DNA from: Escherichia coli O157:H7 | Lineage (GTDB): Bacteria; Pseudomonadota; Gammaproteobacteria; Enterobacterales; Enterobacteriaceae | Length of the DNA: 64,000 bases | NCBI RefSeq assembly: GCF_013167455.1 | Contig: NZ_CP038328.1 | Direction: 5' to 3' (one strand) | In this document: positions 32,380 through 32,457 of the stretch, piece by piece | Layout of the letters: each line of letters opens with the position of its first letter | How positions within the stretch are numbered: position 1 is the stretch's first letter | Made by a program: the position numbers and the translations under genes | Notes under the pieces: generated by a model | Database searches by the model: none | Told to the model about the DNA's origin: nothing | Seen by the model: only the letters and a program-made list of their open reading frames with translations

Positions 32380-32457
32380 TTTATCACCCCCTACATTCGT
32401 GAATAACTGAAGCTAACTGCGAGCCTACGGGCTCGCAGTGAAAACTCTGGAGTGATT

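Follow-up and report, generated by a model that had tools for sequence, protein, structure and literature searches.

A conserved RNA hairpin in the yciG-yciF spacer of the Escherichia coli O157:H7 prophage CP-933X stress operon, a proposed intra-operon attenuator or 3' stabilizer

The DNA analyzed here, referred to as the window, is a stretch of 64,000 nucleotides of the E. coli O157:H7 chromosome that is 100% identical to many O157 genomes; all positions are counted from its first nucleotide. It contains the genes Z1924 to Z1921, the yciGFE-katN-like operon of the cryptic prophage CP-933X (PMC5363993). As an earlier note on this DNA had stated, the hairpin described below is flanked by the yciG-like and yciF-like genes of a stress cassette, and Pfam identified the products as a KGG protein, two DUF892 proteins and a Mn catalase (Table 1). 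This gene order is that of the yciGFE-katN stress operon and is syntenic with the Salmonella and Klebsiella loci; the yciF-like product shares 80% identity with core E. coli YciF. The best promoter-like site is located about 60 nt 5' of the yciG-like ATG in a region with a GC content of 31%, which fits the RpoS activation and H-NS repression reported for the cassette (PMC5363993). The consensus scan detected no promoter-like site in the yciG-yciF spacer. At the other end of the operon, the canonical terminator past katN is located at the convergent end of a tail-fibre-assembly (tfa) gene that stops at 34530, and it is possibly bidirectional.

Table 1. Features of the yciGFE-katN-like operon and of its yciG-yciF spacer (positions in the window)
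Feature	Position	Strand	Basis
Best promoter-like site, TTGACA-16-TAGAGT; candidate operon promoter	32110..32137	+	Consensus scan only
yciG-like gene Z1924; 60-aa KGG-repeat stress protein; upstream cistron	32197..32379	+	Pfam KGG, E 1e-16
RNA hairpin; 10-bp perfect stem ACUGCGAGCC/GGCUCGCAGU, UACG tetraloop closed by C-G	32416..32439	+	Fold, homologues, covariation
Tail past the stem (GAAAACUCU), A-rich; position of the U-tract in homologues	32440..32448	+	T count
Shine-Dalgarno GGAG (32449-32452) and yciF-like ATG (32458-32460)	32449..32460	+	Alignment to core E. coli yciF
yciF-like gene Z1923; DUF892, ferritin-like; first downstream cistron	32458..32958	+	Pfam DUF892, E 3e-54
yciE-like gene Z1922; DUF892	32995..33501	+	Pfam
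katN Z1921; Mn catalase; last operon gene	33520..34410	+	Pfam; PMC5363993
Canonical intrinsic terminator, AAGCCCGCG...CGCGGGCUU then UUAUUUU; operon end past katN	about 34498..34535	+	Sequence

A 121-bp direct repeat with 90% identity (30750-30870 and 34572-34692), derived from the 3' part of a tail-fibre-assembly gene, brackets an AT-rich cargo of a methyltransferase open reading frame (ORF) and yciGFE-katN; the GC content of this cargo is 39%, compared with 51% for the window, and it resembles a moron that arrived at the tfa gene through duplication or recombination. The methyltransferase ORF, just 5' of the cassette (31031-31699), is intact and encodes 222 aa; its annotation is class I SAM-dependent methyltransferase, and in strain TR01 it is marked as frameshifted. 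Insertion-sequence genes also adjoin the cassette: a 133-aa ORF on the minus strand (30270-30671) is presumed to be an IS transposase orfA, and the counterpart place in strain TR01 (L001 2439-4751) carries an annotated ISEc8 (IS66 family). In some O157 genomes, an IS1203 copy within or adjoining the matched region splits the match in two.

The yciG-like and yciF-like genes are separated by 78 nt (32380-32457, the stop codon ending at 32379 and the ATG starting at 32458) rather than by the 75 bp of the earlier note. The perfect 9-bp stem with a TACG loop that the note had described, CTGCGAGCC-TACG-GGCTCGCAG, was found at 32417-32438, and one extra A-U pair extends it to 10 perfect pairs (32416-32439), of which seven are G-C. 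The hairpin starts 36 nt past the yciG-like stop codon, is preceded by single-stranded AU-rich sequence, and, with its 10-bp stem and 4-nt loop, falls within the terminator ranges of 5 to 14 bp for stems and 3 to 8 nt for loops. It is not a chance structure, because its fold energy departs from that of shuffled sequences, fewer than one such stem is expected in the window under a Markov null model, and it is conserved across genera with covariation, as described below. The 36-nt hairpin segment folds with -21.2 kcal/mol, compared with -7.4 +/- 2.1 kcal/mol for dinucleotide shuffles (z -6.7; 0 of 200 shuffles as stable), the z score for the full spacer is -4.25, and 0.59 perfect hairpins of at least 10 bp are expected per 64 kb under a first-order Markov null of the window. 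Searches with Rfam covariance models gave no match over 32416-32439 at E <= 10, and the sole Rfam match touching the spacer was a chance-level snoRNA on the opposite strand (32324-32392).

The hairpin sequence matches the window only once, with up to 3 mismatches allowed. A 40-nt segment containing it is present only in the 381 of 5,426 complete E. coli genomes that have the cassette, at a median of one place per genome and at most 2, and at least 374 of these 381 genomes carry it at 99% identity or more. With a single copy in the window and per genome, it can be ruled out that the hairpin is a REP/BIME element or another dispersed repeat. Homology to the terminator of the monocistronic paralogue ymdF was also ruled out, the two sequences being unrelated. 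A 10-bp stem is too short for an RNase III site.

Downstream of the stem, the Shine-Dalgarno sequence begins after 10 nt and the yciF-like ATG after 19 nt, and an alignment between the O157 copy and core E. coli yciF showed that CUGGAG and the ATG are kept. In the minimum free energy fold, AUCACCCC, just past the yciG-like stop codon, pairs with the yciF-like Shine-Dalgarno region, GGAGUGAU. An anti-Shine-Dalgarno helix mediating translational coupling was nevertheless rejected: the duplex is no better than shuffled sequences (z -0.22) and is not conserved, and in a diverged E. coli variant of the cassette the would-be anti-Shine-Dalgarno sequence carries three substitutions without compensation.

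For comparison with other species, loci were gathered from one genome per species with a YciF alignment, from plasmid records by tblastn and from viral contigs by a further scan, which together gave a sample of 19 distinct enterobacterial spacers with yciG directly upstream of yciF. The viral contig scan contributed only one new hairpin variant (L094), and a protein search with YciF returned only near-identical E. coli proteins. The earlier note had suggested a comparison with the K-12 spacer, and this comparison, once extended, revealed that the hairpin is kept, with compensatory changes, in core E. coli and in about 10 enterobacterial genera. The note's own refuting condition, a lack of conservation in homologous operons, therefore did not come true. 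The core E. coli spacer aligns poorly to the prophage spacer except at CUGCGGGCC-GUAU-GGCUCGCAG, which occupies the same position; relative to the O157 hairpin, one A-U pair is replaced by G·U and the loop differs. A homologous hairpin with the basal stem CUGCGRG/CUCGCAG is present in 14 of the 19 spacers, namely, those of E. coli (two types), Salmonella, Klebsiella, two Citrobacter, three Enterobacter, Lelliottia, Leclercia, Pseudocitrobacter, Enterobacter sp. Bisph1 and one metagenomic contig. The 5 other spacers hold a hairpin of unrelated sequence at this place (Enterobacter sp. R1, Phytobacter, Superficieibacter and Pseudescherichia, with Bisph1-like arms as a diverged case). The local hairpin is more stable than shuffled sequences in all 19 spacers (z -2.3 to -7.9). 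Among the 14 homologues, the basal 7 pairs are 93% identical, compared with 52 to 56% for flanks of 8 to 12 nt, and the distance from the hairpin to the yciF ATG ranges from 19 to 34 nt.

Outside the Enterobacterales, no KGG gene was found directly upstream of YciF homologues (58 to 69% identity) from Xanthomonadales, Burkholderiales, Pseudomonas and Asticcacaulis (loci L015-L084), and therefore the yciG-hairpin-yciF arrangement appears to be confined to the Enterobacteriaceae; in Erwiniaceae, the spacing is looser (159 to 686 nt). The core E. coli spacer (L002 1681-1765) resembles the Enterobacter hormaechei spacer (L098 411-500) minus about 11 nt between the hairpin and a conserved UUUCACUGGAG, a deletion that leaves no more than 20 nt between the hairpin and the yciF ATG in the two E. 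coli copies, compared with 23 to 34 nt elsewhere. Loops also vary: extra-stable tetraloops are found in the O157 copy (32426-32429) and an Enterobacter MAG, both C(UACG)G, in Pseudocitrobacter, C(UUCG)G, and in Lelliottia, GAAA (loci L008, L005 and L007), and the remaining homologues have ordinary loops of 3 to 5 nt. Such tetraloops, reached independently in several lineages, fit selection for a stable or rapidly folding hairpin and not for a particular loop sequence.

RNAalifold, applied to the 14 homologues, returned a 10-pair stem in which 4 pairs have compensatory double changes. In total, 96.4% of the cells are paired, compared with 31 to 41% when the partners are slid by 1 to 3 columns; none of 500 shuffles matched the covariation score or the percentage paired, and 2 to 3 of 500 matched the counts of pairs and types. 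All 20 standard pairs that are not Watson-Crick are G·U on the sense strand, with no A·C cell, and in 13 of the 14 sequences the reverse complement forms a less stable hairpin than the sense strand. In addition, the conserved half-sites are 8 to 12 nt apart, depending on the sequence. The covariation, the strand bias of the G·U pairs, the stability of the sense strand and this variable spacing together show that selection has acted on an RNA hairpin in the sense mRNA and not on a DNA operator. That the palindrome acts at the DNA level, as an operator for a dimeric DNA-binding protein or as a recombination site, is hence extremely unlikely, although the half-sites CTGCGAG/CTCGCAG are unusually conserved, with 93% column identity. 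Against such a site stand the variable spacing and the 20 sense G·U cells, which would be A·C mismatches in DNA and have no reciprocal case; moreover, unrelated hairpins substitute for it in 5 genera, and there is no dispersed second copy.

The sequence that follows the stem separates the O157 copy from many of its relatives. In 7 of the 14 homologues, the 8 nt past the stem contain at least 5 T (5 to 7 each): Salmonella (UAUUUUGC), Klebsiella (UUAUUUUC), C. werkmanii and L094 (both UUAUUUUU), C. freundii (UAUUUCUC), Leclercia (AAUUUUUA) and Pseudocitrobacter (CUUAUUAU). From their sequences, this half of the family is predicted to be canonical intrinsic terminators, and the Salmonella and Klebsiella hairpins are terminator-like on the sense strand in the scan that was also applied to O157. 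The replacement hairpins of some other genera likewise have 5 to 7 U in 8, and core E. coli and the Enterobacter/Lelliottia group have 3 to 4. In the O157 copy, the sequence 3' of the stem is UGAAAACUCUGG, in which, as the earlier note had observed, there is no U-tract, and the terminator scan of the window did not flag this internal hairpin. If counting begins right behind the 9-bp core, at 32439, 2 of the first 8 nt of the tail UGAAAACU are T, the lowest number among the 14 homologues, and positions 2 to 7 contain no U. Since fewer than 5 of the 8 nt directly 3' of the stem are U, the O157 hairpin is outside the canonical intrinsic-terminator class, to which its homologues belong. The operon ends with a textbook terminator, and therefore the missing U-tract is specific to the internal hairpin and not a cassette-wide trait; because half of the homologues carry a T-tract, its absence is a derived peculiarity of the O157 copy. 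The stem itself is fully Watson-Crick, and the 22-nt core, at -18.4 kcal/mol, is the second most stable of the 14, behind that of Bisph1.

Expression data are available for the orthologous Salmonella operon. Stationary-phase RNA-seq of wild-type Salmonella 14028 (raw counts per gene, normalized; PMC4014581, Dataset S1) gave counts of 7,567 for yciG (183 nt; 41.3 reads per nt), 2,204 for yciF (504 nt; 4.4 reads per nt), 1,677 for yciE (507 nt; 3.3 reads per nt) and 1,826 for katN (879 nt; 2.1 reads per nt). The read density thus steps down about 9.5-fold between yciG and yciF (6.6- to 14-fold over three replicates) and 1.3- and 1.6-fold at the later junctions, a pattern that termination, decay or, in part, a library bias against or for short transcripts could each produce. 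In the rpoS mutant, the counts of all four genes collapse (PMC4014581), which fits a single promoter. In O157:H7 strain EDL933, microarray log2 signals are 11.1 for Z1924, 8.9 for Z1923 and 9.9 for Z1922, values that stem from different probes and are only roughly comparable, and all three genes are strongly RpoS dependent. The coverage step that the earlier note had proposed to look for at the hairpin is hence seen in the Salmonella orthologue; for O157, the microarray difference of 11.1 versus 8.9 is in the expected direction. No yciG or yciF entries were found in the supplementary tables of three E. coli K-12 studies of 3' ends and decay and of the TERMITe reanalysis of Term-seq data (PMC7815308, PMC12207403, PMC5927463 and PMC10687069).

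With moderate confidence, we propose that the hairpin is the version carried by CP-933X of a conserved sense-strand stem-loop that acts as an intra-operon attenuator or 3' stabilizer and raises yciG mRNA over yciF-yciE-katN. The short yciG message would be present in larger amounts than the remainder of its transcript, yciF-yciE-katN. In most relatives, the GC stem and its U-tract would stop a fraction of the polymerases and yield a hairpin-capped yciG mRNA. At the O157 copy, most polymerases would read through the stem; after an endonucleolytic cut downstream, 3'-to-5' exonucleases (PNPase and RNase II) would halt at it, so that decay would remove the distal part but spare the yciG-like segment, as in malE-malF, and some residual termination or pausing may occur. 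For yciF, yciE and katN, this would leave the smaller share of the transcripts or a distal part of lower stability. Because the U-tract is missing while the stem is kept perfect, the O157 copy probably acts mainly as a barrier to exonucleases rather than by termination. The earlier note had suggested that differential mRNA stability or partial termination favors the KGG protein; in kind, this is partly supported by the conservation and the Salmonella step, and we infer that the hairpin causes this density step and, for the O157 copy, which mechanism dominates.

It is conceivable, but rather doubtful, that the element is a functional partial intrinsic terminator in O157 as well, in which the hairpin, perhaps with NusA/NusG or the few downstream U residues, releases a substantial fraction of the polymerases. 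Its homologues are canonical terminators, the stem is GC rich and 10 bp long with a tetraloop, and the Salmonella coverage step fits termination. Efficient intrinsic termination in E. coli, however, requires a proximal U-tract, and the O157 tail has 2 U of 8 and failed the terminator scan. Furthermore, most transcription must pass the hairpin, because the downstream genes are RpoS dependent alongside Z1924 and the spacer has no promoter-like site.

The loss of the U-tract could also mean that the O157 element is losing its function. At its extreme, the prophage copy would be a relic, a decaying former terminator without a function. The defining part of the ancestral element is indeed lost, and the cassette is horizontally acquired, AT-rich cargo, but we regard this explanation as unlikely: the stem is perfect, ranks second in stability and is closed by a C(UACG)G tetraloop, and the 40-nt segment is almost uniformly preserved among the cassette-bearing genomes. 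The diverged E. coli variant of the cassette, with 7 substitutions in the spacer and 0 in the 24-nt hairpin, was also counted for recent purifying selection, although this pattern has a probability of about 0.08 by chance.

The hairpin could instead protect what lies downstream of it. In a papBA-type arrangement, RNase E would cut upstream in the AU-rich stretch, and the hairpin would head the yciF-yciE-katN mRNA, protect it against more RNase E cleavage and perhaps tune yciF translation. The short distances to the Shine-Dalgarno sequence and ATG and the AU-rich single-stranded sequence 5' of the stem agree with such a role, and E. coli operons are known to contain comparable structures (PMC5927463). 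We nevertheless consider it quite improbable, as the upstream cistron is the more abundant one in both Salmonella and EDL933, the U-tract seen in half of the homologues speaks for a 3'-end element, and the distance between hairpin and ATG is variable among homologues. This is also where the locus departs from papBA, with which it shares an intercistronic hairpin near the downstream start: there the downstream gene is abundant, here the upstream gene.

One further property of the family is of note. The basal stem CUGCGRG/CUCGCAG is near-invariant across about 10 genera, while the loop, apical stem and flanks drift, and this invariance is tighter than structure alone or a generic terminator requires. 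There is a slim chance that the basal stem is specifically recognized by a protein or RNA controlling read-through or decay and that the element is a conditional attenuator setting the ratio of YciG to YciFE-KatN under a stress signal. If this is true, the O157 copy would be a natural "hairpin-only" variant.

Operon-internal terminators and attenuators are known from rpsU-dnaG-rpoD (T1) and rplL-rpoB. There, as proposed for yciG-yciF, an intercistronic GC-rich hairpin lowers distal expression; the homologues share this full architecture, whereas the O157 copy is without a U-tract. Differential decay within E. coli operons, in turn, is well known to result from protective 3' hairpins (Dar and Sorek 2018, PMC5927463). 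In the malE-malF type described there, a conserved stable stem-loop lies just past the abundant 5' cistron and a U-tract is not needed, and the O157 hairpin is alike: it is a stable stem-loop of conserved structure directly past the first cistron of a polycistronic transcript. It differs in that the malE-malF element is a dispersed REP repeat and the O157 hairpin is a single-copy sequence, and in that the O157 hairpin is intergenic, while many structures of that study are located within the following ORF. The closest counterparts remain the yciGFE(-katN) spacers of Salmonella and E. coli, which are similar to that of O157 in gene order, hairpin place, basal stem and RpoS dependence. The Salmonella, Klebsiella and Citrobacter spacers, in contrast, have T-tract terminators, and the O157 counterpart combines a perfect Watson-Crick stem and a UACG tetraloop with an A-rich tail. 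A description of the yciG-yciF hairpin was not found in the searchable literature, a search to which Robbe-Saule 2001 and Beraud 2010 did not belong. Taken together, the hairpin is most likely an ordinary operon-internal control element that works like the known intra-operon terminators and 3' protective hairpins.

The hairpin described here is a likely reason why a single RpoS promoter can yield more of the small hydrophilin YciG than of YciF, YciE and KatN. This reading covers the core E. coli and Salmonella operons as well as the prophage copy of enterohemorrhagic E. coli, whose KatN is a reported type VI secretion effector. Since the family forms a natural series in which the same stem is combined with a strong, a weak or no U-tract, it could serve to separate the roles of the hairpin and of the U-tract in termination and in mRNA protection.
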